Assembly (NCBI GenBank): GCA_028698185.1
Contig: JAQVDW010000001.1
Coordinates: 150,001 to 182,000 of the forward strand
DNA from: Erysipelotrichaceae bacterium
Lineage (GTDB): Bacteria > Bacillota_I > Bacilli_A > Erysipelotrichales > Coprobacillaceae
DNA length: 32,000 nt
Direction of reading: 5' to 3'
The stretch's first letter is position 1; every line of letters starts with the position of its first letter. Below the pieces are notes generated by a model. That model worked only from the letters and a program-made list of their open reading frames with translations. It did not search any database and was not told the origin of the DNA. Position numbers and translations under genes: made by a program. Shown piece after piece: positions 2,528 to 24,856 of this stretch.

Positions 2528-2737
2528 CTAAAAAACGCCCTTAAAATAAGGACGTCATAAACGCGGTACCACCTTAATTCGTGTAATTCACACGCACTCT
2601 GTCTTAACGCGACTAACGTTTACTTCTACTGTCTTCAAAGTAACTCTTCCCGGGTGTCCCGCAGAGGTCAAATCAATATTTTCACCAGCCATATTGTCTC
2701 TGTAATCGTCTTCCTGCTTAATCCCGTTCCCTAGATT
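2528..2737 (-). promoter_or_regulatory. T-box leader (tRNA-sensing transcription attenuator) of hisS-aspS
   Basis: The minus strand carries the conserved T-box sequence AATTAAGGTGGTACCGCG (plus-strand cgcggtaccacc at 2562-2573). A terminator hairpin CGTCCTTAttttAAGGGCG plus a T6 run follows just before the hisS RBS. A CAC (His) triplet at 2656-2658 lies in a plausible specifier position, but that assignment is tentative. Confidence 0.85.
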
Positions 2738-2743
2738 AACCAC

Positions 2744-2795: not shown

Positions 2796-2828
2796 AAAAC
2801 TCAACCCCGACTGTCATTCAGGGTTGAG
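2796..2828 (-). terminator. Rho-independent terminator ending the SipW operon
   Basis: An 8-bp stem CTCAACCC/GGGTTGAG (2800-2807 and 2821-2828) is followed by TTTT on the minus strand. It overlaps the sipW stop codon. Confidence 0.6.
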
Positions 2829-3315
2829 TAGGCATTTTTTCTTGGTCTTTCCGGTACATATCTGCCAGGTAGCTAAGCAGTATCATCAAAGCCACCACGG
2901 ATCCCAGGATGATCTTGCCATTGAAACTGATTGCGAACACCGCCACATATCCCAGGTATGGGATTGTGAACATTGGCACCCCGACAATATTGTCATATGC
3001 CACCTTGGAACCATCGGCAGTATTGTTGGCATCGCCCTTGGTCGTGTAGAGCATCGCCTGCTGGTCCACCTCTATCACTCGGTGGGTTACCAGAGCTGAA
3101 CTGGATATCTGGAAGGTGATGGGATCGCCAACTTCTATCGTATCGAAATTCTTGTTTACGAAAACCAGACTACCCACATGGTAGGTTGGCTCCATCGAGC
3201 CCGACAGCACCACATAAGGGCTGATTCCGACGATTCTAGGAACATACAGCAATGCCATGAACGCAACTACAATGACTATGATTGCATTGGTTAAGTAATG
3301 GATTAGTTTTACCAT
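2818..3315 (-). CDS. sipW: Signal peptidase I, SipW (ER/archaeal) type
   Basis: The protein has an N-terminal TM segment followed by LSGSMEPTYHVGSLVFV...VTHRV...TKGDANNTADG and a C-terminal TM segment. This is the S26B SipW-like pattern. The ATG at 3315 shares 1 nt with the upstream gene's TGA stop, which suggests translational coupling. The track's extra M is a TTG codon. Confidence 0.85.
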   Translation of the reverse strand: MVKLIHYLTNAIIVIVVAFMALLYVPRIVGISPYVVLSGSMEPTYHVGSLVFVNKNFDTIEVGDPITFQISSSALVTHRVIEVDQQAMLYTTKGDANNTADGSKVAYDNIVGVPMFTIPYLGYVAVFAISFNGKIILGSVVALMILLSYLADMYRKDQEKMPTQP

Positions 3316-4190
3316 CAACGGTTACCACGTTTTTTCTTGAATACAAGCAACCAGAGCACGGTCGCTGCCGCCAACGCAGCTGCAACTGCAGCCGCTGTGA
3401 TTGTGGTTGTATTCCAGAAGCCCGGTGTCAATGGCACATCATCGTCATCGATTATTATTCCACCATCGTCATCGATTATTATTCCACCATCGTCATCGGT
3501 TCCGGTCCCGTCATCATCGGTTGTTGTCCCATCATCGGTTGTTGTCCCATCATCGGTTGTTGTCCCATCATCATCGGTTGTTGTTCCACCACCGGGAGTA
3601 ACAACAGTGATTTGATTTCCAGTGCCCGGTACAACAACTACTGAAGTTGTCACACCACCGGAACTTGAACCACCACCCCCTGACGTGCTAGTAAGGGTCG
3701 AGGTGTAATGGAAGCTGATTTGAACACCATCCTGGCTTATTGTTGCGGTTTTAACCGCGGCATCGACTGCGTAATCCTGGATTTCCAAGGCCAGTACGCT
3801 TACCGGAGCATTAAGATTGGTTGTCTTGACAACCGACGTTGCCAGAGGTTTGTCATTTTCATCAAGATAGTTTATCTGGTATGTTACCGAATCGATAATC
3901 TTGCGGTACTGTGCGACAAAGGTGTCTTCCCTGGTCACTGTTTCAGGCACATCAAGGTAAAACCCGGTAAAGAAATAACCTTCGTTCACATCGATGGCCG
4001 CCTGGATCAGATCCGGATCCAAAGTTGTCCCATATTCCAGATTGAGAACAACCCGGTCCTGGGAAGCGATGCTTCCCTGACTACCGGTCTTGAACGTTAT
4101 ATCGTAACTACGCAATGCATTGGCTGGCAACAGGGTAAAGAACATCATCACGACGATGCCAATCATCACTTTCAATGATCTACTTTTCAT
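3315..4190 (-). CDS. Surface adhesin-like protein (P3) with, in order, a signal peptide, a Listeria-Bacteroides-type repeat, a MucBP-like domain, a Thr/Asp/Gly-rich repeat stalk and a C-terminal TM anchor with a basic tail
   Basis: Supporting motifs are YDITFKTGSQGSI...GYFFTGFY...TFVAQY (List-Bact repeat pattern) and VTYQINYLDENDKPL...ISFHY (MucBP-like). The stalk carries (DDGTTT)n and (DDDGGIII)2 repeats. The tail is PLTPGFWNTTTITAAAVAAALAAATVLWLLVFKKKRGNR. I prefer the ATG at 4190, which follows RBS AAGGGGTG and overlaps the upstream stop by 11 nt. The track's start at 4199 is a GTG. Confidence 0.6.
   Translation of the reverse strand: MKSRSLKVMIGIVVMMFFTLLPANALRSYDITFKTGSQGSIASQDRVVLNLEYGTTLDPDLIQAAIDVNEGYFFTGFYLDVPETVTREDTFVAQYRKIIDSVTYQINYLDENDKPLATSVVKTTNLNAPVSVLALEIQDYAVDAAVKTATISQDGVQISFHYTSTLTSTSGGGGSSSGGVTTSVVVVPGTGNQITVVTPGGGTTTDDDGTTTDDGTTTDDGTTTDDDGTGTDDDGGIIIDDDGGIIIDDDDVPLTPGFWNTTTITAAAVAAALAAATVLWLLVFKKKRGNR
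3441..3590. repeat. In-frame tandem DNA repeats inside the P3 stalk
   Basis: A 24-bp unit atcgtcatcgattattattccacc occurs twice exactly (3441-3464 and 3465-3488) plus a partial third copy. An 18-bp unit catcatcggttgttgtcc occurs three times exactly (3512-3565), and a fourth copy carries a 3-nt insertion. Confidence 0.9.
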
Positions 4191-4806
4191 GTTTACCACC
4201 CCTTTTGTATAGTATCAGCACTAATCCCGCTGCCACGATCAAGCCACCATAGACAAGCGGTGAAACCGATTCGTCGCCGGTTTTGACAATCTTTGGCAAA
4301 GGCTGCTCGACTGAGAATATGAAATTGACTACCCCGGTTTGCCCTTGATATTCGTTGTTGGCCGAATCCCCGTCCAGTGAAAGGGTGACATTGATTGTCT
4401 TTGATGCGCCGGCATTCAAAGTCCCCAACAGGATGTTGTTGTCATTGGTCAGAAACTGCAACCCGATGGTCACTTCATCATTTCCGACTTCGGTTTCAAA
4501 AAACGGTGTTGTCCCATCGGCGATGGTGAATGTGTACACCGCATCCCCGTCACCTTTGTTTGCGATATTGTCGAGAATCTCGCTTGACATATAGAAACGC
4601 ATCTGTCCGCCACTGCCATTTACCAGATTGAAAGTGACTGTTCTTGATTCACCTGGAAGCATGTTTTCGAAATCCGGGGCATTACCGTCAAGCATTATGA
4701 ATCTGTTGGCATCACCTTGATAGGTGATCACATCCGCTGCAGCCACATTGTTCATTGACAGAAAAGCTACAAGAGTGATGGCCAAACCAATTATCAGTTT
4801 TTTCAT
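4180..4806 (-). CDS. Secreted cell-surface protein (P2) with TasA/camelysin-like beta-sandwich motifs and an LPXTG-like C-terminal sorting signal
   Basis: The signal peptide ends VAA/AD. Motifs MLPGESRTVTFNLVNGSG and NEYQGQTGVVNFIFSVEQ resemble TasA-family strands. The C-terminus is PLPKIVKTGDESVSPLVYGGLIVAAGLVLILYKRGGKHEK. The ATG at 4806 has better spacing from AGAGGG than the ATG at 4812. Confidence 0.5.
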   Translation of the reverse strand: MKKLIIGLAITLVAFLSMNNVAAADVITYQGDANRFIMLDGNAPDFENMLPGESRTVTFNLVNGSGGQMRFYMSSEILDNIANKGDGDAVYTFTIADGTTPFFETEVGNDEVTIGLQFLTNDNNILLGTLNAGASKTINVTLSLDGDSANNEYQGQTGVVNFIFSVEQPLPKIVKTGDESVSPLVYGGLIVAAGLVLILYKRGGKHEK

Positions 4807-4821
4807 TTTCATCCCTCTTTT

Positions 4822-5466
4822 CTACAATCCGATTGAAACAATGTTATCATCGGCGTCAAATTCAACATCAACGCCCCACTCAGCCTTGAAAGAATCCTTG
4901 GCGTCAAAGGTCTGAACACCATAACCAAAGAACTCGAGATGGACGATCTTGTCAGCGTAAAGATTGTTGTTTTGGGTCACATCCAGATATGTGTACGAAT
5001 CGATGACCGTTGCATACTCCCCTGGATCAAGTGGTCTGGTGTAGTACGCATAGGTGACTTCGGAATACTCATCACCTTCGAAAACAAGCCAGCCGTTCGC
5101 TACAGTGAATTGGATTTGGGCAGGATCGAGGTAATTTGGGTCATTCTGATCGGTTGTGTTTTTGGTCCCGTCTTCATCGGCCCAGTAGCGGTAAATCGTC
5201 ACCCTGACGTAGGCTGTCGTATTTTCGGTGTTTTTGATCGCCAGTCCGCCATCGATGACGTCACCCGGCATTCCATACACTTCACTTTCCAAGAAATTGT
5301 CAGTTATCGTGCTACCGTCACCATTGACAAAGTCTATGCCAAGATATGGGGTGTAGATAGCCTTCTGGGTTTCAAAACTGCTTTGAATGACACTGTAAGT
5401 GCCATGAACGCTAAAACCAACTACTCCTAGTATGAATATCATTCCTATTATTATCTTCTTGTTCAT
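4822..5466 (-). CDS. TasA/camelysin-family secreted protein (P1), first gene of the SipW operon
   Basis: An N-terminal hydrophobic signal is followed by GTYSVIQSSFETQ. The body has MPGDVIDGGLAIKNTENTTAYVRV and a C-terminal FFGYGVQT motif shared with the other paralogues. The ATG at 5466 follows RBS AGAGGTGA. The track's start at 5475 is a GTG. Confidence 0.6.
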   Translation of the reverse strand: MNKKIIIGMIFILGVVGFSVHGTYSVIQSSFETQKAIYTPYLGIDFVNGDGSTITDNFLESEVYGMPGDVIDGGLAIKNTENTTAYVRVTIYRYWADEDGTKNTTDQNDPNYLDPAQIQFTVANGWLVFEGDEYSEVTYAYYTRPLDPGEYATVIDSYTYLDVTQNNNLYADKIVHLEFFGYGVQTFDAKDSFKAEWGVDVEFDADDNIVSIGL

Positions 5467-5490
5467 ATTTATCACCTCTATATCACTTGT

Positions 5491-5523
5491 ATTTTAACTT
5501 GAGCCAGTCACATGTCAGTCACA
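5491..5523 (-). promoter_or_regulatory. Candidate activator-dependent promoter A with 11-bp-periodic direct repeats plus a -10
   Basis: The minus strand reads TGTGAC-tgaca-TGTGAC-tggctcaagt-TAAAAT. On the plus strand, gtcaca lies at 5507-5512 and 5518-5523, and the -10 at 5491-5496. No -35 hexamer is present. Sites at 11596-11628 and 24824-24856 have identical architecture. Confidence 0.7.
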
Positions 5524-5564
5524 TCTTTATCAATTATTGTTTTAAAGGAAGTGAATTGTTACCC

Positions 5565-5593
5565 TTTATAAAAACCTGGAAATCTTGTATAAT
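5565..5593 (+). promoter_or_regulatory. Putative sigma-A promoter of the plus-strand transglutaminase / type IV filament-like operon
   Basis: TTTATA (5565-5570), a 17-nt spacer and TATAAT (5588-5593) lie about 75 nt upstream of the ATG at 5667. Confidence 0.45.
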
Positions 5594-5666
5594 TACCATA
5601 TGTGAGCAAACCGCAATTGAAACTCCGATTTTGGAGCTTTGCTCAACGACAAGAGGTGATATCCAG

Positions 5667-6587
5667 ATGAAATTCAAATCCCTGATCATCGCAGCCATGC
5701 TTTTAAGCGGATGTGGTACCAAAACCCAGACAACATCCCCTTTGAATCTCGCTCCCTCCTCCAATAAAGCTACCTTGAAAAGCGAGCCGGTTTTCTATCT
5801 TGCCAGCTTCAATGAAGGAAAAACCCAAGGCAACGAAGCGGTGGAAATCGACCTGACCAATGTCGTCAAAGGTTATTTTGGAGTGAAATACAATGGAACC
5901 AACGACAGGCCCAAACTCCAGCTTACACTGCCTTCAGGGGCCATCTACACATACAACCTGACCGGAAAAATCGACTTTTTCAATCTGGTCGAGACATCGG
6001 GCACGTATGTGATCACGGTCTATGAAAATATCGAAGGCAACCGCTATGGCAAGATATTCAAGACCAGCTTTGAAGTTGAGCAGGAAAACGGATTCAATGC
6101 CTTCTTGTACAACAACCAGTATGTCAATTTCGACAAGGACACCCAGGTTGCATATGTTGCCAGCGAGCTGGTCACAAATGCGTCTTCATCCCTTGAAAAG
6201 ATCCAGCTGATCTTCGATTACATTATTACCAACTACGATTATGACTATCAAAAGGCTAAAATTGTCGCTTACGATTATATTCCGGATCTAAACTCTATCT
6301 ACCAATCCAAAAAAGGGATATGCTTCGATTACGCGGCATTGCTTGTTGCGATGCTGCGCACCCAGGCCATCCCGACCCGGCTGGAATTCGGATATGTCAA
6401 AGACACATATCATGCCTGGGTCAGTGTCTATACGGATCAGACCGGTTGGATCGACAATTTCATCTATTTTGAAAACGAGAACTGGCAAATCATGGATCCC
6501 ACCTTCATCTCGCAAGACCCAGGCAACAAGAAAATCCAGGAATTCACGACCGACAGCGAAAATTATGAGCTGAAATACATCTTTTAA
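5667..6587 (+). CDS. Lipoprotein with a transglutaminase-like (Cys-His-Asp) core domain
   Basis: The ATG at 5667 follows RBS AAGAGGTGA. The signal is MKFKSLIIAAMLLSGC, with lipobox LSGC. The catalytic-core pattern is KKGICFDYAALLVAMLRTQAIPTRLEFGYV...YHAWVSVY...WQIMDPT. I judge the track's upstream extension from 5487 to be non-coding. Confidence 0.8.
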   Translation: MKFKSLIIAAMLLSGCGTKTQTTSPLNLAPSSNKATLKSEPVFYLASFNEGKTQGNEAVEIDLTNVVKGYFGVKYNGTNDRPKLQLTLPSGAIYTYNLTGKIDFFNLVETSGTYVITVYENIEGNRYGKIFKTSFEVEQENGFNAFLYNNQYVNFDKDTQVAYVASELVTNASSSLEKIQLIFDYIITNYDYDYQKAKIVAYDYIPDLNSIYQSKKGICFDYAALLVAMLRTQAIPTRLEFGYVKDTYHAWVSVYTDQTGWIDNFIYFENENWQIMDPTFISQDPGNKKIQEFTTDSENYELKYIF

Positions 6588-6598
6588 TGGAGGCGGCA

Positions 6599-7531
6599 AT
6601 GAGAAACGATTACGATCTAATCATCAATTTTTCAAAGCAGATGTATCTGATTTCCACCAGTGGCCAAAGTTTCTTGGCGGGACTTAGATTGCTTGAAACC
6701 AACACCACGCAAATGCGGATGAAAAATCTTTTGACCCAGGTTATCGCCCAGCTCGAACAAAATGACATCATTTTTGCCCTGGAAAGCACCGGGCTGTTTG
6801 ACGAGCTTTATCTTGACCTGATCAAAGCCGGCCTGCATTCTGGAAATCTTGACGAAGTATTTCTTCACCTGACAAACTATTACAAGCAACTTGATCAAAG
6901 CAACAGGAAATTAAGAAGGCTGTTGAATTTCCCCATCGGCATGAGCCTGGTCATGATGGTGATCATGATTATACTGGTGACCAGGATTCTCCCGGTATTC
7001 AGCGACCTTTATGCAGGCATGGGAGCCCAGCTGACCGGTGTTGCCAGGATAAGCCTTCAGCTGGGATACTTCATCAATGATTACCTCGTTTACTTCATCA
7101 TCATTGTGCTATCTGGTGTGCTTTTGTTGCTGGGAATGATCCGGCAAGACAAGGTTGGGATCTTCAAAAAGGCAAAGGCTCTCAATCGGGCATCCAATGA
7201 GCTTTTTGCCGTTTCCACCCTGGTAAAGGCCGGAGTTTCTTTCGATCAGGCAGCTGGAATAGCCAACATGTCCAAATCGGGCGTGATCGAGGCGTTTTCT
7301 TCCCGGCTCGAGCCTCTTGAGCTGTCCTTGTTGGAAATGAGCATCCAGAACGGAACCCATGAAAAGGTTATCGAGATGCTTTTCGACGAGTATCGCCAGA
7401 AGGCCAATACAAGGATGGATGAATCATTGGCCAAGTTCGAACTATACTTTGGCACCGGTTTTGTCGTCATTGTAGCCATCGTCATGCTGTCATTGATCTT
7501 GCCGCTTTTCGCGATTCTTTCAGAATTATGA
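6599..7531 (+). CDS. Type II secretion / type IV pilus platform protein (GspF/PilC/ComGB family)
   Basis: There are two T2SSF-like repeats (LIKAGLHSGNLDEVF; LVKAGVSFDQAAG) separated by TM segments (LPVFSDLYAGMGAQL). It is about 310 aa, close to ComGB in size. The ATG at 6599 follows a GGAGG. Confidence 0.8.
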   Translation: MRNDYDLIINFSKQMYLISTSGQSFLAGLRLLETNTTQMRMKNLLTQVIAQLEQNDIIFALESTGLFDELYLDLIKAGLHSGNLDEVFLHLTNYYKQLDQSNRKLRRLLNFPIGMSLVMMVIMIILVTRILPVFSDLYAGMGAQLTGVARISLQLGYFINDYLVYFIIIVLSGVLLLLGMIRQDKVGIFKKAKALNRASNELFAVSTLVKAGVSFDQAAGIANMSKSGVIEAFSSRLEPLELSLLEMSIQNGTHEKVIEMLFDEYRQKANTRMDESLAKFELYFGTGFVVIVAIVMLSLILPLFAILSEL

Positions 7532-7812
7532 AGATAGTAAGATTAGCGCTGGTTATTGTTGCATTGGCCCTGGGAATCATCTTTATCAATCAGTTCCACC
7601 AGACCAGCCAGGAAAACGCTTTGCATGCACTCGAGCAGTCGATCAATGACAAAATACTGCTTTGTTACATCAATGAGGGGCGTTATCCCGAATCACTGGG
7701 ATATCTTGAGGAAAATTACGGCCTAAGCTTCGATAAGACAAGATATCAGGTTTTTTTGATCCCGATTGGAGAAAACATCATACCTGACTTGACGGTATTC
7801 GCCTATGAATAA
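7528..7812 (+). CDS. Small pilin/pseudopilin-like protein (94 aa) without a canonical prepilin cleavage motif
   Basis: The start overlaps the upstream stop (ATGA). An N-terminal hydrophobic helix MKIVRLALVIVALALGIIFI continues into a GspG/ComGC-like YINEGRYPESLGYL segment. There is no G(-1) and no E(+5). Confidence 0.45.
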   Translation: MKIVRLALVIVALALGIIFINQFHQTSQENALHALEQSINDKILLCYINEGRYPESLGYLEENYGLSFDKTRYQVFLIPIGENIIPDLTVFAYE

Positions 7813-8221
7813 AAGCAACTTGTTTTCATACCTCATTACCGGCATCTTCATCTTCACCCTTAGCGCCATCTGCATCCTTATGCTAAACATCACAAACAAG
7901 ACAGCCATAGCCCAAGATGCCCTTGTAGATGAGCAGTTTGTGATCAGCTTCATAAACGAAAAGATCAAGCGGGCCAAATCGGTTGAAATAAAAAAAGATG
8001 ATACCTCGGACATTCTTGCACTCGAAGATGGTTCTTCATATGTGACCTACCTGTACAACAACGATGGTTACCTATGCGAGCTTTATGTGCCGGCCGGCCG
8101 GGAATTCGATATGGAATATGGGGACCGGATATGTTCCATGGAAAAACTGGACATGGATCTCATTGATGGCCTGCTTGTAATCAACGAAAACTACTACTTG
8201 AACCTGGAGGGCAAGCCGTGA
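7805..8221 (+). CDS. Small bitopic protein (138 aa), ComGF-like minor pseudopilin candidate
   Basis: The start overlaps the upstream stop by 8 nt. It has an N-terminal TM segment (LFSYLITGIFIFTLSAICILML). Its size and layout resemble ComGF-family proteins. This is based on similarity of pattern only. Confidence 0.35.
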   Translation: MNKSNLFSYLITGIFIFTLSAICILMLNITNKTAIAQDALVDEQFVISFINEKIKRAKSVEIKKDDTSDILALEDGSSYVTYLYNNDGYLCELYVPAGREFDMEYGDRICSMEKLDMDLIDGLLVINENYYLNLEGKP

Positions 8222-8586
8222 AAGATAAGATAAGCATGCTCGAGCTATGTGTCAACCTTATGGTTTTCGCAATCGCCCTGGCGCTGGTCATCCAGATCAT
8301 GATGAAAACAACTCTCATCAATTACCACAACACGATCAAGGCCAAAGCAATCATCCAGCTCAACAGTATTGTCGCAATCCTGCAAGAACATCAAGGCGAT
8401 CTTGAAGGTTACTACCAAACCAGTGATTCGCTAATCCTTTTTGACAGCAACAATATAAACACCACGGACGATTATTATTATTGCGTAAAAGTTGAAAACA
8501 ATTTCCCGATATTCCATCTTGATGTTTACGATAAATATGACAACCTGATCATCGCGACTGACTACGAGGTGGCTTATGAAGATTAG
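8218..8586 (+). CDS. Small pilin-like protein (122 aa) with a degenerate class III signal
   Basis: The GTG start overlaps the upstream TGA (GTGA). The N-terminus MKDK/ISMLELCVNLMVFAIALALV places Glu at +5 relative to a putative cleavage site, but Lys rather than Gly sits at -1. Confidence 0.4.
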   Translation: MKDKISMLELCVNLMVFAIALALVIQIMMKTTLINYHNTIKAKAIIQLNSIVAILQEHQGDLEGYYQTSDSLILFDSNNINTTDDYYYCVKVENNFPIFHLDVYDKYDNLIIATDYEVAYED

Positions 8587-8962
8587 AATCGGGCTGACAA
8601 GCCTTTTCAATATCATCATCATCCTGGTATTGATCACATTGACATTCAACTCATACATCCAGACCAAGGCCAGCCAAACCCTGATTGACCAGAACCTCGC
8701 CCACAACCTCACCTACCTTGAGGCCAGGTCGATAATCAACCGTTTCATCAACGACAGCCGGGAAATTCCGTTGACGAATCTTCAGGACCAATACGATTTT
8801 CAAATGGAAGCAAATGTGATAACTTTCCAGGAGGTCATTGACTATGGCCAGACAGTCACATTGGTTTACGATTATAATGCCAAGCAAATCATCTCCTTGC
8901 AGGTCCAAAACAATTCGGATTACCAGCTAGATGACTTGGCTCCAGTCTACACAGGAGAATGA
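8576..8962 (+). CDS. Small pilin-like protein (128 aa), ComGG-like candidate
   Basis: The N-terminus MKIRIG/LTSLFNIIIILVLITL has Gly at -1 but no Glu at +5, as in ComGG/GspK-type minor pilins. It overlaps the upstream gene by 11 nt. Confidence 0.4.
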   Translation: MKIRIGLTSLFNIIIILVLITLTFNSYIQTKASQTLIDQNLAHNLTYLEARSIINRFINDSREIPLTNLQDQYDFQMEANVITFQEVIDYGQTVTLVYDYNAKQIISLQVQNNSDYQLDDLAPVYTGE

Positions 8963-8963
8963 T

Positions 8964-10016
8964 ATGGAAATTACTTCAATTCTGCACCGGGCAATAACCA
9001 TGCAGGCTTCGGATATCTTTATCGAAGCCAACATCCCAGTCAAGTTCAAGAAAGACAATCAACTGTGCCCCTTGAACAATGATGTACTCACCACCGAAGA
9101 CACCAAACAGCTTATCAGCCAGATTTACGAAATCGCCAAGCGCGATGTCGATATCCTCTTCAATGACGGCGATGACGATTTCGCCTTCTCGATAGCCCAC
9201 CTTTCCCGCTTCCGGGTGAGCATGTTCAAACAGCGGGGCTCACTGGCTTGCGTGATCCGGATCATCGCCTTCAAGCTGCCGGATTTCCAGGAATTGAACA
9301 TTCCCGAACAGCTGATTGATCTAGGCGACCAGACCAACGGGCTGATCCTTTTCACCGGTCCTTCAGGAAGCGGCAAATCCACGACCCTGGCATGCATCAT
9401 CGACTACATCAACCACAAATATGCCCGTCATGTCATCACTCTTGAAGACCCTATCGAGTATCTTCATGTCCACAACAAATCGATAATCACCCAGCGGGAG
9501 ATCGGCAATGACACCAACTGTTATCTGACCGCCCTGAGGGCCAGCCTGCGCCAGTGTCCCGATGTCATCCTGCTTGGGGAGATGCGCGACCATGAAACTA
9601 TCGAGACTGCGATAACCGCAAGCGAGACCGGCCACCTGGTGTTTTCCACACTCCATACAATCGGCGCAAGCAATACAATCAACCGGATCATCGATGCCTT
9701 TCCAGCCAATGAGCAGCCACAGATAGCGATGATGCTCTCACTGACCCTCAATGCGGTCGTGTCGCAGCATCTCGTTCCCGATATTTCCGGTAAGCTCATT
9801 CCGGTGTTTGAAATCATGATTGTCAATCCGGCCATCCGCAACCTGATAAGAGAAAAAAAGATCCACCAGATCGACTCGATCATTGAAAGCGACCGGCAAA
9901 ACATGGTGACCCTTGACAACAGTCTGCTGCAACTTTACCAGGACCGTATCATATCCAGGGAAACAGTGATCAAGTACTGCAAGAACAACCAATATATCAC
10001 CCAGAAATTGGGATAG
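8964..10016 (+). CDS. pilT: PilT/PilU-family type IV pilus (retraction-type) hexameric ATPase
   Basis: The ATG at 8964 follows AGGAGA and lies 1 nt after the upstream stop. Motifs read by eye are ASDIFIE, Walker A GPSGSGKSTTL, ITLEDPIEY, PDVILLGEMRDHETIETAITASETGHLVFSTLHT, INRIIDAFPANEQPQI and NPAIRNLIREKKIHQI. This set is diagnostic of PilT rather than PilB/GspE/ComGA. Confidence 0.85.
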   Translation: MEITSILHRAITMQASDIFIEANIPVKFKKDNQLCPLNNDVLTTEDTKQLISQIYEIAKRDVDILFNDGDDDFAFSIAHLSRFRVSMFKQRGSLACVIRIIAFKLPDFQELNIPEQLIDLGDQTNGLILFTGPSGSGKSTTLACIIDYINHKYARHVITLEDPIEYLHVHNKSIITQREIGNDTNCYLTALRASLRQCPDVILLGEMRDHETIETAITASETGHLVFSTLHTIGASNTINRIIDAFPANEQPQIAMMLSLTLNAVVSQHLVPDISGKLIPVFEIMIVNPAIRNLIREKKIHQIDSIIESDRQNMVTLDNSLLQLYQDRIISRETVIKYCKNNQYITQKLG

Positions 10017-10062
10017 AAAAAAGGCATGTTGTGTTAACACTATCCGTTAACGAACATGCCTT
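10015..10062 (-). terminator. Terminator hairpin between two convergent genes (the pilT-like gene and P4)
   Basis: The stem AAGGCATGTT/AACATGCCTT spans 10021-10030 and 10053-10062. A T-run follows only in the minus-strand sense, so it is an efficient terminator for P4 and possibly a weaker one for the plus-strand operon. Confidence 0.6.
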
Positions 10063-10074
10063 CATGCTGTCATA

Positions 10075-10725
10075 TTAAGAATATTGTTCGATTGCCGCTG
10101 CAGGCCAACCAGTGATCATGCCACCTGGGTTGGTTGTAGGTGTCACATTAGCTGCTTGAATCGCTTCAGCCTTTACAGTTATTATGTAATCATCGTTTGT
10201 GCTGCTGTTGGTCAAGCTGCTTGGGAATGATACTGTAGAGAATACAGTTACGTTTGCGCCAGCTGCCAAAGAGTTCTTATAATACACATATGCACTTTCT
10301 GAACCATCAGGATTACTTGTCAAACCACCGATAAACCAATCACTTGTGTTGATATTTAAATAACTCAACAAAGTAGCTTCAGAGATGACCCCATCGCCTC
10401 CGGTATCTATCGTCTTAAGAGTAACCAGTGCGCGGACATAACAATCTTCAGATCCAGCCATTACTGTAATTACAGGCTGTTTGGAATAGACATCGCCAGG
10501 CATTACATCATTGTAATCGTAACCGTCATCAGTAGCCGTACCAGCCTTAACGCCAGGTCCTGCAACTGAAGTTTCTCTTAAATCGATGTCAACATGTCCC
10601 ATTGTGATTGTGTTGGTTTCAGTTTTGGTGTAGTCAGTGAAGTATGCCAGCGTGAATCCGACAGTGGCACTGAGTGCAATCGCTGCTGTAGTGACAATTG
10701 CAGCAATTTTCTTGTTCAATTTCAT
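10075..10725 (-). CDS. TasA/camelysin-family protein (P4) with a SipW-dependent-type signal peptide
   Basis: The signal GFTLAYFTDYTKTETNTITMGHVDIDL matches the TasA-type signal (compare B. subtilis TasA GGGTWAAFNDIKSKDATFASGTLDL). The body has MPGDVYSKQPVITVMAGSEDCYVRALV and a C-terminal KAEAIQAANV. Confidence 0.8.
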   Translation of the reverse strand: MKLNKKIAAIVTTAAIALSATVGFTLAYFTDYTKTETNTITMGHVDIDLRETSVAGPGVKAGTATDDGYDYNDVMPGDVYSKQPVITVMAGSEDCYVRALVTLKTIDTGGDGVISEATLLSYLNINTSDWFIGGLTSNPDGSESAYVYYKNSLAAGANVTVFSTVSFPSSLTNSSTNDDYIITVKAEAIQAANVTPTTNPGGMITGWPAAAIEQYS

Positions 10726-10780
10726 AATATTTTCTCCTTTTTTAATTATGTTTAGTGATCGTTGAATTAATCAATTAATA

Positions 10781-11464
10781 TCAAGGCGCTGGGTATCCGG
10801 CAAGGGTTTTCAAAGCTGTTGCCTTGTCAGTTCCAGCTGGCAATGATATTTGAACACCATAAGCAGTTGCATCTATTTCCAATTTTGGTAAGTTACCTGA
10901 ACCATCAGGAACCAATCCGAAGGAAATCAACACTTGGGTGAACAATGGTGATGTCGTTGCTTGAGCTGAATCGGCTACAAGATAAGAATTGAAAACAAAG
11001 AAATCATTGTTTGCAGGTACTGTCGATTCATTAGACCATTCGTCTACTGCCGCTCCAGTGTCAAATACGATGCTGTCATCTCGAAGATATGTCGCAAATG
11101 TTGCATAAGGAACTACAACATCGTTAACCTTGTAGGTCAACTTCATTGCCACGTAGGTGTTGTCGCTTCCGGTCATGGCTTTGATGGTCGGATCTTTAGG
11201 CACAGTATCTCCTGGCAAGTACTCATTGGCTATGTTGTAACCAAGGGTTACATCATCTGATTTAGGTGATGTACCGCCCGGCCAAGCTTCTGAAAAATCG
11301 TATCCATCCCATGCCGGTTCTCTTAACTCAATGTCGATTCCCCGTGATGATGTAAAAACGTTTGTTGCCGATGATGTGGTATCAGTCAAAAGAGCCATAG
11401 TCAATGACAGGGTAAGACCAAAAACCAATGCAAAAATCATTAAATACTTTGTGAATTTCTTCAT
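10781..11464 (-). CDS. TasA/camelysin-family protein (P5) with a SipW-dependent-type signal peptide
   Basis: Supporting motifs are MALLTDTTSSATNVFTSSRGIDIELREPAWDGYDF, LPGDTVPKDPTIKAMTGSDNTYVAMKL and C-terminal ATAYGVQ. It is a clear paralogue of P6 (23417-24118). Confidence 0.8.
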   Translation of the reverse strand: MKKFTKYLMIFALVFGLTLSLTMALLTDTTSSATNVFTSSRGIDIELREPAWDGYDFSEAWPGGTSPKSDDVTLGYNIANEYLPGDTVPKDPTIKAMTGSDNTYVAMKLTYKVNDVVVPYATFATYLRDDSIVFDTGAAVDEWSNESTVPANNDFFVFNSYLVADSAQATTSPLFTQVLISFGLVPDGSGNLPKLEIDATAYGVQISLPAGTDKATALKTLAGYPAP

Positions 11465-11595
11465 GTTGTCATTCTTCCTTTCCTTAATAGTAAACTAACA
11501 TGATTATGTAACAATTAATACGGATATTATGGTAAGACATTTTCGGGTTTTCGTGTTCGCCTTGAGTTATTGTCTTTACCTCTAATTTCAATAAC

Positions 11596-11628
11596 ATAAT
11601 ATTATTTACCTGTCACACTGAAGTCACA
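11596..11628 (-). promoter_or_regulatory. Candidate activator-dependent promoter B, with the same architecture as promoter A
   Basis: The minus strand reads TGTGAC-ttcag-TGTGAC-aggtaaataa-TATTAT. On the plus strand, gtcaca lies at 11612-11617 and 11623-11628, and the -10 at 11596-11601. It sits immediately downstream of the regulator's terminator. Confidence 0.7.
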
Positions 11629-11643
11629 AGATTGAAAAACCAC

Positions 11644-11673
11644 AAAAAAACTTGGCTCAGTTAGACCCAAGTT
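11644..11673 (-). terminator. Rho-independent terminator of the regulator gene
   Basis: The stem ACTTGG/CCAAGT, which includes the last codons of the CDS, is followed by T7 on the minus strand. Confidence 0.6.
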
Positions 11674-12856
11674 TTTGACTGTTGCAAGTTATGTAGATGT
11701 CGTTTTTTTTCAGACCGCGGTAAAAATATTTCTCGATTCTCTCGATAACCAAGGTTGCATCGTCAATATTGCACATGCTAAGAAGACAGCTGTACTGATT
11801 GGGCGAGACCTTGGAAACCGAATCGCTGTTGCGCAGTGCATCAATCAAAACATCTTCAACACGGTCCATTCCCCTATTCAAGGTATCCCGGAAGATCTTG
11901 GAATGGCCGTCAAACGGTTTCATCACATTAACCGAGACCAGAAGCAAAGTCGAATCGAACGAGTGTCTTTGCGCCAGCCGAAGCTCAAGATTGCATAGGT
12001 TTTTAAATGCACCGTAATCACAGACAAGGACGTTCTTTGATTGCAGTGGAACAATGTCCTGCTGGACCTTGTCAATCGATTCATTGGCCGGCAGAAACCG
12101 GCTCAAGATCTGCTCATAAGTCTTGATCAGCTTATCACTCGGCAAAACCCCAAGCTCATGATTTAGAATATATTTGGCTGTCTCATATTTGACCCGGGCA
12201 AGTTCAAACTCGTTATTTTGACCAAGGGCTAGGATTTCATAACGGTAAAAATCCTCTTCCGTATTGTCAAGCGACAAAGCGTTGTTAGAATAGAAATAGA
12301 GGTCATCGTAAAACTTCTGGTTGTAAAGCACCTTCAGAAAATCTTTTGTCATTTTCAAAAAAACATTGTGATAATACATCGAATTCTGCATTATTAACGA
12401 ATCGTAATCAAAATGGGCAAACAGACGGTCCTGATAAATTTCTGTCGCTTTTTTATAATGGTCGATCTTGGTCAGATCATCCATTTTGTCGTCAACTGAA
12501 CTTATCAGTGCATAAAACTCCTCAAAATCGACGATCAGCTTGACCTGTGAATTCCAGAAATATGTTCCCGACCCGGTCATTATCAGTTCCTGATCAGGCC
12601 ACACCTGCTTCATGACTGTCCGCAAACGGTAGACCAGGTTTTTAAGTGCCCCAATCGGATTGGAACTCTCATCATCTTCCCAAAGGTAATCGCACAAATC
12701 CGATAACGGGATGATGGTATTATGATGGGTAATAAAATAAAAAAGCAGTTTGGCCAGGCGCTTCGACTTGAGCATTGTCAGGTTGAGCTGGCCGACGTCG
12801 TTACTGATCTGGAATTCACCAAAGGCATAGACGTTCAAAACACAAGAATATTCCAT
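11657..12856 (-). CDS. SARP-like transcriptional activator (OmpR-type winged helix plus BTAD/TPR-like domain) with a C-terminal degenerate GGDEF-like domain
   Basis: The N-terminus VYAFGEFQISNDVGQLNL...KRLAKLLFYFITHHNTIIPLSDLCDYLWEDDESSNPIGALKNLVYRLRTVM fits the SARP/EmbR-type wHTH pattern. The middle region is helical and BTAD-like (ARVKYETAKYILNHELGVLPSDKLIKTYEQIL). The C-terminus LRNSDSVSKVSPNQYSCLLSMCNIDDATLVIERIEKYF aligns to R-x-x-D-(5 aa)-GGDEF-vvll...A..iAErIr of GGDEF domains. Confidence 0.65.
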   Translation of the reverse strand: MEYSCVLNVYAFGEFQISNDVGQLNLTMLKSKRLAKLLFYFITHHNTIIPLSDLCDYLWEDDESSNPIGALKNLVYRLRTVMKQVWPDQELIMTGSGTYFWNSQVKLIVDFEEFYALISSVDDKMDDLTKIDHYKKATEIYQDRLFAHFDYDSLIMQNSMYYHNVFLKMTKDFLKVLYNQKFYDDLYFYSNNALSLDNTEEDFYRYEILALGQNNEFELARVKYETAKYILNHELGVLPSDKLIKTYEQILSRFLPANESIDKVQQDIVPLQSKNVLVCDYGAFKNLCNLELRLAQRHSFDSTLLLVSVNVMKPFDGHSKIFRDTLNRGMDRVEDVLIDALRNSDSVSKVSPNQYSCLLSMCNIDDATLVIERIEKYFYRGLKKNDIYITCNSQKLGSN

Positions 12857-13059
12857 AAAATCACTCCCCCCAAATATTCTTAAAATTTAAAAATATTATA
12901 TATTGCTACAGGTTTGATGTAGTTAAAAACAATGGTTGATCTTACATATATATTTATGTTACTACTAAATGTCCAATAAATCAACCTAATCAATTCAACC
13001 CAGTCAATTAATTATCAGTAATTACTTTTAAAAAAACACCAGACCAATTGATGTTTGAT

Positions 13060-20802: not shown

Positions 20803-23382
20803 TTATTCAGACACAGGATTATTTATGATATTTCTTGAATATCCTGAATCAGACAGCCAGTATGAAGGAACCTTCGTAGCTACAAAAGTCACATCATCGT
20901 CAGTGTTGGTAATTGTAATGCCAATAGCTGCCAGATTGACTATATCATCCTGGCGGATGTCAACAAAATTTAGATCATCTCTGCTTAATGTAACGATAAT
21001 CGAATCAGGTGAAATCGGATCCGAGTCCGGATTTTGAAGCGCATTGGTGTATCTTACCAGCCAGGCGTCATCACTGACAACCCTATACGTTCCAATTGAT
21101 AAACCTGAAATTATATCCGAGTCGCTTGATCCTTCGTGAGGATAAAGGGCGACATTGTAAGTTTCAACCACATTGCCTCCTCCGTCAAGTTTCTGGATTT
21201 CATAGCCGAATCCCTGTAGTGCCGAGATGTCAATCTGTGAGTATTCGACATCGATAATCTGGGTTATCTGGAATTCTCCTTCAACGATGTATACGTTGAA
21301 CTGGACATCCGAACCGGTTGCAAGATTGGCAGTCACATCATTACCATTCGCATATACACTCACGTTATATGTGATCACGTTTGTATCTTTGGTTGTTGGA
21401 GTGGTTATGACACTTGAAGTGCCGCCATCGAGACTGTAGCTAAGAGTAGGCGCAGTGCCCTGGACAGCCGGGTCAACTCCTGGCACATAAGCCGGATCAT
21501 TGCAAACCCAATTTACTGTTTCATTTATGTTATCCACTGTGAATGATTCACCTTTGAAGATGACCTCATCGTTTGTAGTCACCTGAGGTACGAAGACAAA
21601 CACTTTTGCGGTGTCCTCAATTACAAGCGGCGCTGTGACAGGAGTGCCTGTGCTGGTTGGAAGTGCCGTTTGCGTTTCCACAACAGCTTTGATTGTATAC
21701 TCATGGGTTCCTGTCAAACCAGACGTGTCAAGCTCGTCGGGATACCATGTGAAACTTCCAGTTGTGCCACCGGCCGGTATTGTATATTCACCAATCAAGG
21801 TGGTTCCATCATATATCTGATAAGTGACGTCCGCATAATCGTTGCGATGTTCTCCTAGGTCATAGGTGACCCCGTCAATCTGATATTGGATACCTGATGT
21901 TGATACATTATCGAAGAAGGCCGTGACGTCTTCAAGATTGTTTGTGATGTAGATCGCCTGATCATTCGCTGTGAATTCATAGTCCAAAGGAACATTGACA
22001 GTCGGTTCGGGGAATGGTTTGATTTCCTCATCCTCATAATACAAGGCCGAATCGGGAGTGTTGGTTTCAACGTTGTTTCCACCGATAAAACCAGGTATAT
22101 CAGTCGTAGTGAATGAAACAACTAGTTTGTTACCCTGAGTCGGGATAGTACCATCGCCATCTATGCAGGAGTTTGCCGCATAATCGAATCCAGTGACCGT
22201 TATCGTTTTTGCAACCGAATCAATTGTTGCAGTTACATCGACGCCTTTGGTCAGTTCCACTCCTGTGGAAGAGAAAGTGCCGCTGCCGGTATATGCATAG
22301 GTATACACATGAACATCTGCCAAGGCCGGAACAGTCAATACGTCCGAACAGTAATCGACAAGTTCCGTATCAGTCGAAAGAATCGAGTTTTGTACAATTC
22401 CGTAATTTTGAACAGTTTCAAAAACATTTTGCATATCAAGAGTATCGGCAACATTATAATAAAAATCATTGCTTTCCTGAGTTCCCAATGATATATAGCT
22501 GGTCGCATAAGGATAATTTGAAGACATAGCCTTCATGTAATTGATTGTATTACTATCATTGACATTAGATGTTTTGACTGTAAATATTTTTACACCATTA
22601 TCTTTCAGTTCCTTTGCAACTGTAATTGCAGCATTAGCAACAGTAGGACTAAAAGAACTTGCAGTTGTTGGTACACCATCAGTGAAGAATAAAATCACCT
22701 TCAAGTGTCCATTTGAAGCAGTTGCATTATATATCTGTCTAGCAATCTCCATACCAGTATCAGCTGAAGTAGCTCCTTCTGGTTTAAGTGAATCAATGGC
22801 GTCATGGATATCCGAATTATTGGTTTCGACACCTTTGACTACCCTACTGACCAAATTTGTATAGCTCCAACCCATAACGGTATTGTAAGGCCAACCAGGA
22901 GTATCCTGATATGTTGATGGGCTGGGCCCTGTATTTCCATCAAAGGCTTCTGTAACTTGGTAACTTCCACCTCCGGGGGTTGCATACACGGTGTCCGGAT
23001 CAGTTGCGAATCCCACAATGGAAACTGTATCACCTGTTGTTCGATCCAAAGCATCGATTGAATCGACGAAATCATGTGCCGCATCCTTCAAAGCTTCCAT
23101 ACGGGTTTTGCCTGAGGCAAAATACGAATCCATAGACCCTGATTGGTCCAACACCAGAATAAAGTCAACCGGCACATCTTCAGATGTGACCGTTATATCA
23201 CCAGTGACATAGGTTTCCAGGTTAATGGTATAAGTGCCATCCCCATTGTATGTAGCTGTCTTATCCATGTGAATTGTATCCAGCTCTTCTTGTGTAAGGG
23301 CATCAACGTTATTTGGCAGGGATATGATGCCCAATGCAAGAAACAACACGAGACCCATTTTTATGATGTTTTTAATTTTCAT
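20803..23382 (-). CDS. Large secreted vWA (MIDAS) domain protein with C-terminal Ig/CnaB-like modules; candidate fibre-associated adhesin
   Basis: The Sec signal is MKIKNIIKMGLVLFLALGIISLPNNVDA. The vWA core is VDFILVLDQSGSMD...VSIVGFA...GATSADTG...VILFFTDGVPT. A later segment, FGYEIQKLDGGGNVVETYNV...LSIGTYRVV, resembles CnaB/SpaA-type folds. There is no LPXTG motif and no TM segment at the C-terminus. Confidence 0.8.
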   Translation of the reverse strand: MKIKNIIKMGLVLFLALGIISLPNNVDALTQEELDTIHMDKTATYNGDGTYTINLETYVTGDITVTSEDVPVDFILVLDQSGSMDSYFASGKTRMEALKDAAHDFVDSIDALDRTTGDTVSIVGFATDPDTVYATPGGGSYQVTEAFDGNTGPSPSTYQDTPGWPYNTVMGWSYTNLVSRVVKGVETNNSDIHDAIDSLKPEGATSADTGMEIARQIYNATASNGHLKVILFFTDGVPTTASSFSPTVANAAITVAKELKDNGVKIFTVKTSNVNDSNTINYMKAMSSNYPYATSYISLGTQESNDFYYNVADTLDMQNVFETVQNYGIVQNSILSTDTELVDYCSDVLTVPALADVHVYTYAYTGSGTFSSTGVELTKGVDVTATIDSVAKTITVTGFDYAANSCIDGDGTIPTQGNKLVVSFTTTDIPGFIGGNNVETNTPDSALYYEDEEIKPFPEPTVNVPLDYEFTANDQAIYITNNLEDVTAFFDNVSTSGIQYQIDGVTYDLGEHRNDYADVTYQIYDGTTLIGEYTIPAGGTTGSFTWYPDELDTSGLTGTHEYTIKAVVETQTALPTSTGTPVTAPLVIEDTAKVFVFVPQVTTNDEVIFKGESFTVDNINETVNWVCNDPAYVPGVDPAVQGTAPTLSYSLDGGTSSVITTPTTKDTNVITYNVSVYANGNDVTANLATGSDVQFNVYIVEGEFQITQIIDVEYSQIDISALQGFGYEIQKLDGGGNVVETYNVALYPHEGSSDSDIISGLSIGTYRVVSDDAWLVRYTNALQNPDSDPISPDSIIVTLSRDDLNFVDIRQDDIVNLAAIGITITNTDDDVTFVATKVPSYWLSDSGYSRNIINNPVSE

Positions 23383-23416: not shown

Positions 23417-24118
23417 CTAATCTTCGATGAATTCAAGCATTGTGGAATCAACATCGCCGATATCCAGGTTTGTCCCCTGAATCGCATATGCATTCACATT
23501 GATTTCAAAATCTTTGAGATTTTCTTCATATATATTGAACTTTACCTTGATTTCGCTAAACAGTGCGTCCGTACCCGATGTGCCATCGGTGGAAAGAAGG
23601 TCCGCAATGTCATCAGCGCCATCAAAAATATAGATCTCATACTTGTTTTCAGGCGGGGTTTCACTGTCGGGAATCTGATGCCAGTTGGAGCTGATCACCA
23701 GATCATCGATCAGGGTGCTGGTTAGTTCCGATTTGTCTACATTTATGTATGTACCGGTCGCATCCTTAAGCAGGAATGAGACTTTCATTGCCACATAACA
23801 GTCTTCACTGCTCTGATCGAGTTGGATCTTTGGATCCTTGACGATTGTGTCACCCGGCATGTAAGTCGTCGCCTTGTTGAAACCCAGATCCGAACTTGTT
23901 GAGTCGTCTTTGGTTCCCAAGCCGTGTTCCCAACCATCATCATCAAAGCTGTATCCATCCCATCCCGGTTCACGCAACAGGATGTCCACTTTTCTAGTCG
24001 AGGTGAATATGTTTTGGGCCGGTCCCGAAGAATCAGCAAGCAGCGCCGTTGACGAGCTGACTGTAAGCAAGATCAGTGAGAAAACCATTCCTGTAAATAT
24101 CATGTGTCTTTTATTCAT
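23417..24118 (-). CDS. TasA/camelysin-family protein (P6) with a SipW-dependent-type signal peptide
   Basis: Supporting motifs are TALLADSSGPAQNIFTSTRKVDILLREPGWDGYSF, MPGDTIVKDPKIQLDQSSEDCYVAMKV and VNAYAIQGTN. It is a paralogue of P5. The ATG at 24118 follows RBS AAGGTGA. The track's start at 24127 is a GTG. Confidence 0.8.
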   Translation of the reverse strand: MNKRHMIFTGMVFSLILLTVSSSTALLADSSGPAQNIFTSTRKVDILLREPGWDGYSFDDDGWEHGLGTKDDSTSSDLGFNKATTYMPGDTIVKDPKIQLDQSSEDCYVAMKVSFLLKDATGTYINVDKSELTSTLIDDLVISSNWHQIPDSETPPENKYEIYIFDGADDIADLLSTDGTSGTDALFSEIKVKFNIYEENLKDFEINVNAYAIQGTNLDIGDVDSTMLEFIED

Positions 24119-24160
24119 TATTATCACCTTACCTCTTTTGCAATATAAGTTGATTGATCA

Positions 24161-24763: not shown

Positions 24764-24823
24764 ATATACCACCTTTATTCTGTTAGCTATTTTCATACAA
24801 ATATCACTATTCTATTCATTCAA

Positions 24824-24856
24824 ATACTAACCCTTTGATGTCACATAGCAGTCACA
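24824..24856 (-). promoter_or_regulatory. Candidate activator-dependent promoter C, with the same architecture as promoters A and B
   Basis: The minus strand reads TGTGAC-tgcta-TGTGAC-atcaaagggt-TAGTAT. On the plus strand, gtcaca lies at 24840-24845 and 24851-24856, and the -10 at 24824-24829. Confidence 0.7.

Follow-up and report, generated by a model that had tools for sequence, protein, structure and literature searches.

The 32,000-nt stretch analysed here (the window; GenBank assembly GCA_028698185.1, contig JAQVDW010000001.1, positions 150,001 to 182,000) was placed in Coprobacillaceae (Erysipelotrichales) by a RelA-seeded genome scan. Between the leader of hisS and relA lie two distinct envelope modules, together with one regulator, that are kept as neighbours in this Coprobacillaceae clade. 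Module A consists of a SipW-type signal peptidase, five TasA-family paralogues in the window, a probable anchor protein with a sortase-type signal, a MucBP-like membrane protein and, at a second locus, a von Willebrand factor A (vWA) protein. Module B is a cassette of seven genes, for a lipoprotein with a transglutaminase core, a short PilC/GspF-type platform, four pilin-like proteins and a PilT-family ATPase. Each part is of a known kind: fibres of the SipW/TasA/Bsa sort, a member of the type IV filament superfamily, and a regulator with SARP and degenerate-GGDEF domains. We see about an even chance that module A is a regulated Bsa/TasA fibre system and that a pseudopilus made by the cassette helps its products to cross the wall.

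The block is bounded by hisS (1229-2527, minus strand) with its T-box leader (2545-2740, minus strand; 120.6 bits in Rfam, gathering score 93) and by relA (13060-15288, minus strand). The listing of open reading frames (ORFs), with Pfam and NCBIfam scans, confirmed the backbone of hisS, T-box, relA, apt and recJ, and located the genes where an initial annotation, made from the sequence alone, had put them. That annotation counted 13 genes between the T-box and relA, and there are 14, in four units (4+7+2+1). Unit 1, on the minus strand, contains tas217, the 210-aa anchor protein, a 294-aa surface protein and the SipW-type peptidase. Unit 2, on the plus strand, is the cassette, which runs from the lipoprotein through the platform and four small proteins to the PilT/PilU-family ATPase. 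Two TasA-like genes form unit 3 and the regulator, with a winged helix-turn-helix (wHTH) and a BTAD domain, forms unit 4, both on the minus strand. The second locus, also on the minus strand, adds the vWA gene and two further TasA-like genes. The families first assigned (SipW, TasA-like, transglutaminase lipoprotein, GspF/PilT machine, SARP/GGDEF-like regulator and vWA adhesin) all stood.

The three operons with TasA-family genes shared an operator. The perfect sequence TGTGAC-N5-TGTGAC was found exactly three times in the 32 kb, against 0.18 expected, always on the minus strand and 10 nt upstream of a TAnnAT -10 element, and the three copies preceded exactly the three TasA operons. Operator 1 (5507..5523) belonged to the tas217 promoter, recovered by scan as CTGACA-16-TAAAAT; it overlapped the -35 element and lay inside the divergent intergenic region between tas217 and the transglutaminase gene. 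Operator 2 (11612..11628) lay in the tas227 promoter, upstream of TATTAT, and operator 3 (24840..24856) in the tas211-tas236-vWA promoter, upstream of TAGTAT. The operons so headed extended from 5475 to 2818, from 11464 to 10075 and from 24796 to 20803. Operators were kept, with variable spacers, in all members of the clade and in the Lachnospiraceae loci L077, L102, L103 and L104 (comparison loci are numbered in this way), and an equivalent operator preceded the vWA gene in L016, L102 and L104.

Direct hexamer repeats with 11-bp spacing that overlap the -35 element are the classic layout of SARP sites. The regulator (11657..12856, minus strand) has the corresponding architecture, an OmpR-type wHTH followed by BTAD (37.8 bits, cutoff 22.1), with Trans_reg_C at 25.0 bits just below its cutoff of 26.2, and its profile matched the SARP AfsR over positions 37-257 (E 1.8e-13). 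It resembles SARPs of the AfsR/ActII-ORF4 class both in domains and in the 11-bp-spaced hexamers over the -35 element. The C-terminal 150 residues, used as a profile, have a GGDEF fold and matched the diguanylate cyclases 6zxm and 4urg at about 2e-9, with LRrgDvvtkySgsQf aligned to RRSDVVARYGGDEF. All 17 homologues had S-x-x-Q-[FY] in place of the GGDEF motif, with an invariant RxxD I-site (R93, D96, S102 and Q105 are conserved in all 17 sequences). Since the active-site motif is lost and RxxD retained, the domain is more like a receptor than an enzyme. A GGDEF fold with this combination is the classic configuration of a cyclic di-GMP (c-di-GMP) receptor, as in PelD and PopA, and the window regulator is like these degenerate-GGDEF receptors in both respects. 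Literature searches found no link between SARP-GGDEF proteins and TasA. A SARP/GGDEF-receptor fusion with a defined operator appears to be new, as we found no described example in Bacillota driving TasA-type operons, and with its clear operator it offers an entry to the study of how matrix genes of anaerobic Firmicutes may be activated in response to c-di-GMP.

The regulator family had a companion in at least eight lineages, beside either module: a conserved cytoplasmic protein of 142-169 aa with FPQA and RQNASWQG motifs and no Pfam family. Copies were located in L101 (2614-3060), L102 (3605-4042), L103 (10933-11361), L030 (5851-6291) and L031 (14604-15071). In L101-L103 it follows the regulator (142-148 aa); a homologue was not found in the window.

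The five paralogues tas217, tas216, tas227, tas236 and tas211 belong to a single hidden Markov model (HMM) family. Two of them, tas217 (4822..5475, minus strand) and tas227 (10781..11464, minus strand), are the first genes of their operons, the latter of the tas227-tas216 unit. Gene callers gave the L003 copy of tas217 as 214 aa, and the true start of tas217 is probably the ATG at 5466. The model for the SipW-cognate signal peptide (TIGR04088, cutoff 19) was exceeded by two of the five, tas216 (10075..10725, minus strand; 26.1 bits) and tas211 (24161..24796, minus strand; 19.7 bits). Homologues were named "TasA family" or "SipW-dependent-type signal peptide" and carried PF12389. The predicted fold of the subunit is a jelly-roll: an AlphaFold2 model of tas216 (pLDDT 86.5) found the TasA fibre 8aur_A as its best PDB match in Foldseek (E 1.2e-3, probability 1.0, TM 0.34). 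The TasA-like profile matched no PDB sequence, and TasA was recovered by the fold search only. As the TasA equivalog model scored 13 bits against a cutoff of 450, membership of TasA holds at the superfamily level only. The match of tas211 to the BsaA family (TIGR04090) was weak (16.9 bits, cutoff 60).

The SipW-type (archaeal/ER-type) signal peptidase I (2818..3318, minus strand) is the last gene of the tas217 operon. It scored 103.3 bits with TIGR02228 (cutoff 51.85), matched Pfam Peptidase_S26 and showed SGSMEP and THRV motifs in translation; with the B. subtilis SipW equivalog NF046067 it reached 104 bits, below the cutoff of 190. Between it and tas217 lie two surface proteins. The 210-aa TasA-related protein (4180..4812, minus strand) ends in a sortase-type sorting signal (LPXTG_anchor TIGR01167, 17.6 bits, cutoff 15.9) made of xKTGD, a transmembrane helix and a K/R tail, in which T178, G179 and D180 were invariant among 10 homologues. 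It aligned to the TasA-like profile over the N-terminal 90 columns only (hhalign 95%, E 3.7e-8). From its sequence, it is the probable wall anchor of the fibre. The 294-aa protein (3315..4199, minus strand) has a signal peptide, a MucBP-like domain (a weak match of 20.4 bits, cutoff 23), a spacer of T/D/G-rich repeats, a C-terminal transmembrane helix and a basic tail. It does not belong with the TasA-like proteins (hhalign 36% over 10 columns), and it partners tas217 and the 210-aa anchor also in L077, L078, L087 and L101-L103. Of the seven TasA-like proteins proposed initially, then, five or six remain, the 210-aa protein being related N-terminally only and the 294-aa protein unrelated. No protein of the block matched TapA/YqxM in the Pfam and NCBIfam scans. 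The T/D/G-rich spacer is encoded by imperfect coding tandem repeats of 18-24 nt at 3437-3599. Homologues of the 294-aa protein ranged from 269 to 348 aa, and these repeats are a likely site of the length variation.

At the second locus, tas211 and tas236 (23417..24127, minus strand) are followed by the gene for a secreted vWA protein of 859 aa (20803..23382, minus strand), with VWA_2 and VWA matches and a DQSGS metal-binding (MIDAS) motif; reading of its sequence revealed no anchor. Judged by sequence, this protein is the counterpart of C. perfringens BsaC. The initial annotation treated the second locus as part of the same system, and we agree: both loci carry the operator, and the Lachnospiraceae loci hold all the genes in one cluster. 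Each of the four TasA-seeded loci L101-L104 contained a regulator, several TasA-like genes, two SipW-like ORFs and a vWA or other large adhesin. The trio of tas217, anchor and 294-aa protein was present in L101-L103 and a sortase in L102 and L104; in L101, L102 and L104 the cluster of regulator, TasA-like and SipW genes included a vWA gene. That L101-L104 have the same genes in a single cluster shows the two loci of the window to be parts of one system. The Sellimonas cluster L101 has an insertion at 3189-4940, where a nucleotidyltransferase/HEPN pair and a PDDEXK_9 gene separate the vWA gene from the regulator and its partner.

The cassette of module B opens with the transglutaminase/cysteine-protease-core lipoprotein (5667..6587, plus strand; Transglut_core 74.7 bits). 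Its lipobox (G15-C16) and its Cys219-His249-Asp277 triad were invariant among eight homologues of 34-74% identity, and its closest solved relative was 3isr, a putative cysteine protease. A 366-aa ORF with a TTG start at 5487 was rejected as over-extended, the start being 5667. The 314-aa platform (6587..7531, plus strand) matched Pfam T2SSF (PF00482, 65.3 bits) in two stretches and was far under the cutoffs of the GspF, PilC and ComGB equivalogs; only four close clusters were found in 5.8 billion proteins. The ATPase (8931..10016, plus strand; probable true start 8964) is the only one in the cassette. It passed the PilT/PilU model TIGR01420 (409.6 bits, cutoff 319.1), matched PF00437 (162.7 bits) and has the AIRNLIRE motif in translation. 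It fell below the cutoffs of the models for ComGA (NF041000, 149.4 against 300), PilB (TIGR02538, 119.7 against 675.65), TadA/CpaF (TIGR03819, 34.3 against 373) and GspE. The PilT of Dorea and Solobacterium, to which it was 57-60% identical, ends the same seven-gene operon there.

Four small proteins, all on the plus strand and each starting with a transmembrane helix, lie between the platform and the ATPase. Small protein 1 (7528..7812; 94 aa) has a conserved CYxxEGxYP, and stood in order in 82 loci with G51, Y53 and P54 invariant. Its profile gave no significant match to solved pilins or GspG, and a likeness of CYxxEGxYP to GspG, drawn by eye, was dropped for want of such a match. Small protein 2 (7805..8221; 138 aa) is a DUF4860 protein (PF16152, 53.1 bits), a family of at least 190 clusters at 50% identity (representatives, E<=1e-3). 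Neither of the two had a class III signal motif, and none of the four gave an N_methyl match in the Pfam and NCBIfam scans. Small protein 3 (8218..8586; 122 aa) has an N-terminus like that of type IV pilins: its family consensus [G/S/N]|LFLxELI aligned to residues 2-6 of mature pilins, Glu9 was the sole invariant residue among 31 sequences, and the best solved matches, marginal with an E of 0.013, were to the type IV pilins PilE1 and PilA5. Small protein 4 (8576..8962; 128 aa) resembles a minor pilin, in that a conserved Gly precedes the hydrophobic helix and Glu5 is absent; by inspection, its N-termini read xIG|SSSLL and RIG|LTSLF across lineages.

A metagenome scan with the lipoprotein alignment matched more than 594 stretches, of which 80 loci were kept. 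The seven genes occurred together in all 67 loci that held them, in constant order except in L096, where the lipoprotein gene came last, and L089, where the third and fourth small genes were called in reverse. The cassette recurred in gut Bacillota, usually in the absence of module A, and many of the matching metagenome contigs were labelled human gut. In common with the type IV filament superfamily it has a hexameric ATPase of the T2SSE family, a T2SSF platform and four small proteins whose hydrophobic N-termini are pilin-like, one of them with the conserved Glu, and the logic of the operon resembles comG or gspF-K. Unlike type II secretion, Com and type IVa systems, however, its motor is solely of the PilT/PilU type and it lacks a prepilin peptidase, PilMNO and a canonical major pilin. 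It also differs in opening with an obligatory Cys-His-Asp lipoprotein and, in some lineages, in including a sortase in the operon. No motor of the PilB, GspE, ComGA or TadA type and no PilM/N/O was present in the cassette in the 67 loci, and none of the cassette-locus flanks that were fetched and examined had a prepilin peptidase (A24). A major pilin of the canonical G|FTLxE type is likewise absent from the cassette. Literature searches, including DUF4860 and the combination of type IV filament, transglutaminase and PilT, returned no description of the cassette, and a PilT-only cassette with a transglutaminase-core lipoprotein appears to be new.

The cassette could instead be a rearranged Com-type pseudopilus for DNA uptake, unrelated to the fibres, whose ATPase gene has moved to the end of the operon. 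In number and size the genes do recall comGB-comGG together with an ATPase that has no N1 domain, the ComGA and ComGB models gave sub-threshold matches, and a ComN-like Post_transc_reg gene lies at 17544-17825. We nevertheless regard this as improbable. The PilT model was passed while ComGA was missed by half and ComGB (NF041012) scored 52.6 bits against 240; a ComGC-type major pilin with G|FTLxE was absent; and the obligatory transglutaminase-core lipoprotein, together with the sortase, SARP-GGDEF and GGDEF neighbours, points away from competence and to surface or biofilm biology.

The genes upstream of the cassette differed between lineages. In L019 (3332-5061), L050 (8552-9178) and L081 (2262-4040) they were signalling genes of other kinds, among them a membrane GGDEF protein with a sigma-like or anti-sigma-like 336-aa protein, a sigma factor of the extracytoplasmic function (ECF) type, and a predicted membrane protein whose C-terminus, by eye, is like a class III nucleotidyl cyclase. 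This variety suggests second-messenger control of the cassette in general.

One sign of a link between modules A and B is their adjacency in three lineages that are unrelated in the cassette phylogeny, the Coprobacillaceae clade, L077 and L078/L087, in two arrangements. L077 had the same divergent layout as the window, with the regulator, and in L078/L087 the fibre genes lay downstream of PilT, beside a sortase; in the phylogeny L077 and L078/L087 grouped with cassettes of the Lachnospiraceae type that lack module A. Outside the clade this adjacency was seen in two of 26 lineages, against 0.13-0.45 expected (P 0.007-0.08). The regulator family flanked the cassette in 8/26 lineages, and the same pair of regulator and partner was found in-operon with either module. 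In the high-G+C lineages L031 and L080 the operon reads regulator, sortase, cassette, partner, and L089 is alike, with a weaker match to the partner. The sortase (PF04203, E 1.9e-20; L031 9096-9839, L080 9080-9832, L089 9120-9869) lies between the SARP-GGDEF regulator and the transglutaminase lipoprotein, and the partner follows PilT. Since no cassette protein has a sorting signal, this sortase implies a substrate from outside the cassette. A fourth lineage showed a related pairing: in L104, a pig-gut contig, a canonical type IVa pilus locus (12219-20657) lay directly downstream of the cluster of regulator, vWA, TasA-like, SipW and sortase genes, with PilB bearing MshEN, PilT, PilC, a G|FSLVE pilin, PilD, PilM and a T2SSM-like gene. 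The recurrent ties of the cassette to sortase, to the regulator family and to TasA clusters appear to be new.

Several results weigh against a joint function. The cassette was free-standing in most places: 24 of the 26 other lineages had no TasA or SipW genes in about 300 kb of scanned flanks, and pilus-type genes were absent within 10 kb of three of the four TasA-seeded loci. None of the operators in the window points towards the cassette, which has a promoter-like site of its own (TTTATA-17-TATAAT, 5565-5593). Among the cassette-only loci, scanned with up to two mismatches and also for any 6-mer repeat at 11-bp spacing, an operator upstream of the transglutaminase gene was found in L081 only. 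Neither the cassette nor the window contains a prepilin peptidase or an extension-type ATPase, and pilin identity is weakly supported, with the E of 0.013 and, in the window version of small protein 3, a spacing from leader to Glu two residues shorter. These findings could be explained if the modules were unrelated in function and neighbours by history, the fibres being self-made and the cassette serving as an adhesive or retractile filament of its own or in other secretion; in that case the ties through regulator and sortase would come from a general co-regulation of surface structures by c-di-GMP. That TasA-type fibres self-assemble fits such independence, as do the position of the cassette elsewhere beside housekeeping genes (rnr, smpB, secG and eno, for example), the TasA clusters with no pilus-type genes nearby, the restriction of the window operator to TasA operons and the different regulators that precede the cassette in other lineages (a GGDEF membrane protein, an ECF-type sigma factor). 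It accounts less well for the adjacency in three unrelated lineages and two arrangements with a fourth that has a canonical pilus, for the regulator and partner pair, for the external substrate of the operon sortase, and for genetics in C. perfringens that tie pilus proteins to Bsa secretion (PMC11580942). We hold independence of the modules to be possible, at rather less than an even chance.

The initial annotation supposed an association, beyond chance, between the pilus-like operon and the SipW/TasA genes. The three unrelated lineages and the common regulator family and sortases bear this out in part, though adjacency is the exception. Its stronger proposal of one novel integrated system was not upheld, given a cassette that stands alone in 24/26 lineages outside the clade and TasA-seeded loci of which 3/4 were free of pilus-type genes. 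Nor could we sustain its statement that no described system combines such parts, because secretion of Bsa in C. perfringens depends on type IV pilus proteins (PMC11580942). There, sipW-bsaA-bsaB-bsaC is a biofilm-matrix operon (Obana 2020, PMC7395162; Kivimaki et al. 2024/25, PMC11580942), secretion of BsaC requires PilA3, PilB2, PilC1, PilD and PilMNO, and several pilus mutants secrete less BsaA oligomer (PMC11580942). Since pilus proteins are needed for the secretion of BsaC and aid that of BsaA oligomers, the functional pairing has a published precedent, with a canonical pilus and not with this cassette.

The window shares with C. perfringens Bsa a SipW peptidase, several remote TasA homologues and a vWA protein, so that the component set (sipW, bsaA/B-like genes, vWA) is complete, with the operator in common. 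Some C. perfringens strains also have an LPXTG-bearing paralogue and a neighbouring sortase, to which the anchor of the window may be likened, and in both cases a type IV filament machine is implicated in protein exit, in the window through genomic adjacency. Unlike the Bsa operon, the window genes are distributed among three operons at two loci, their regulator is of the SARP/degenerate-GGDEF kind and the BsaA-family model is not reached (16.9 against 60). Because this HMM stayed below its cutoff, the fibre proteins of the window are Bsa analogues or remote homologues. A further difference speaks against carrying the precedent over: the C. perfringens pilus is canonical, with PilB, PilD and PilMNO (and PilC and PilA3), whereas the cassette is PilT-only, with a lipoprotein and non-canonical pilins. 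The resemblance to B. subtilis tapA-sipW-tasA lies in the SipW-type peptidase and in fibre subunits with SipW-cognate signal peptides. The window differs from it in lacking TapA, in failing the TasA and SipW equivalog cutoffs (13 against 450 and 104 against 190), in having many paralogues, an anchor with a sortase signal and a vWA protein, and in predicted SARP control in place of SinR/SlrR.

On balance we consider functional coupling of the two modules plausible, and suggest that the explanation with a fibre system and an assisting pseudopilus would work as follows. Binding of c-di-GMP at the conserved RxxD would switch on the SARP/degenerate-GGDEF regulator, which would activate the three TasA operons. 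The TasA-family subunits would be exported by Sec, trimmed by the SipW-type peptidase and, by analogy with TasA and BsaA, polymerised by donor-strand exchange. A sortase encoded elsewhere would attach the fibre to the wall by way of the TasA-related protein with the TGD signal, and the membrane-anchored MucBP-like protein and the large secreted vWA protein may add adhesive functions. The cassette would build a short PilT-driven pseudopilus or piston through the thick peptidoglycan, which may aid the 93-kDa vWA protein and the fibres in crossing the wall, much as BsaC and BsaA are helped by the C. perfringens pilus. Possible roles of the lipoprotein are the processing or cross-linking of components, or an action on the wall.

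More tentatively, and with clearly less confidence than in the scheme above, the cassette may represent a distinct, unnamed class of type IV filament in monoderm gut bacteria, a single-motor piston that crosses the wall, works with sortase and SipW, is controlled by c-di-GMP through a SARP/degenerate-GGDEF receptor-activator, and exports and mounts TasA fibres and vWA adhesins. Gram-positive bacteria may possess a device like type II secretion for moving large folded proteins through peptidoglycan, of which C. perfringens has given the sole experimental hint. The arrangement described here fits the idea that they push large matrix proteins through the wall with pilus-like machines. This locus and its relatives back the idea independently at the genomic level and yield a small group of candidates for testing it (seven genes, one motor, substrates adjoining), and if the cassette is indeed a wall-crossing piston, it would be a compact Gram-positive counterpart of type II secretion. 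With more than 594 stretches matched in public metagenomes and at least 190 DUF4860 clusters, gut Bacillota may commonly carry an envelope machine that has so far gone unstudied.

The initial annotation described the block as inserted between the hisS leader and relA. Comparison of this interval in relatives showed the same block in the same order in all those recovered, and the succession of 14 genes was repeated in eight independent contigs or genomes, more than chance would give. It lay between hisS and relA, unchanged in order, in the complete chromosomes of two metagenome-assembled genomes (MAGs), OY776328.1 and OY780959.1, whose RelA was 93% and 84% identical to that of the window, and in five further contigs or genomes. 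Synteny was kept in every relative down to 84% identity in RelA and 37% in the platform, and no empty hisS-relA junction was found among them. The claim that integrase, transposase and flanking repeats are missing was borne out: scans of the window and of the block ends revealed no integrase or transposase, no tRNA gene and no flanking direct or inverted repeat. Since site and order were the same in all relatives, even at 37% platform identity, there is no evidence of recent insertion, and the block is better described as fixed at this site across the clade, with no signature of mobility. Recent acquisition as a genomic island would agree with the G+C of the block (0.39-0.47, below the 0.49-0.53 of the flanking hisS and relA) and with alleles that are mosaic relative to the flanks and so point to recombinational exchange. 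But G+C was comparably low elsewhere in the window, and the constancy of site and order and the lack of mobility genes, tRNA and repeats make such an island very improbable.

The mosaic structure was apparent when the window was compared with L010 and L015. L010 had flanks about 98-99% identical to those of the window (RelA 98.9%), yet the platform was 68%, the small proteins 55-71% and the TasA-like pair of unit 3 56-60% identical. In L015 the reverse was seen, with RelA at 93% and most block genes at 94-100%. On these identities the block looks like a hypervariable surface locus that is exchanged by homologous recombination between conserved flanks.

Some minor observations were made in the same comparisons. 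In L011 a group II intron reverse transcriptase (RVT_1 and GIIM; 15174-16568) was present between the TasA-like pair and the regulator. L013 (GCA_028690095.1, JAQVBX010000080.1) comes from a MAG labelled "Alphaproteobacteria bacterium" and is a contig of the Coprobacillaceae type with HisS 98.5% identical to that of the window; it was probably mis-binned, or the MAG misclassified. In the window itself, a hairpin with 19-nt arms and a 22-nt loop (10012-10071) lies between the convergent PilT and tas216 genes and is a candidate bidirectional terminator. A 418-aa ORF with no convincing family (28584-29840, plus strand; G+C 0.39-0.42, AT skew strongly positive) lies among housekeeping genes that are all on the minus strand (pnp, mntR-like, greA and a U32 peptidase), and it alone is read from the plus strand.

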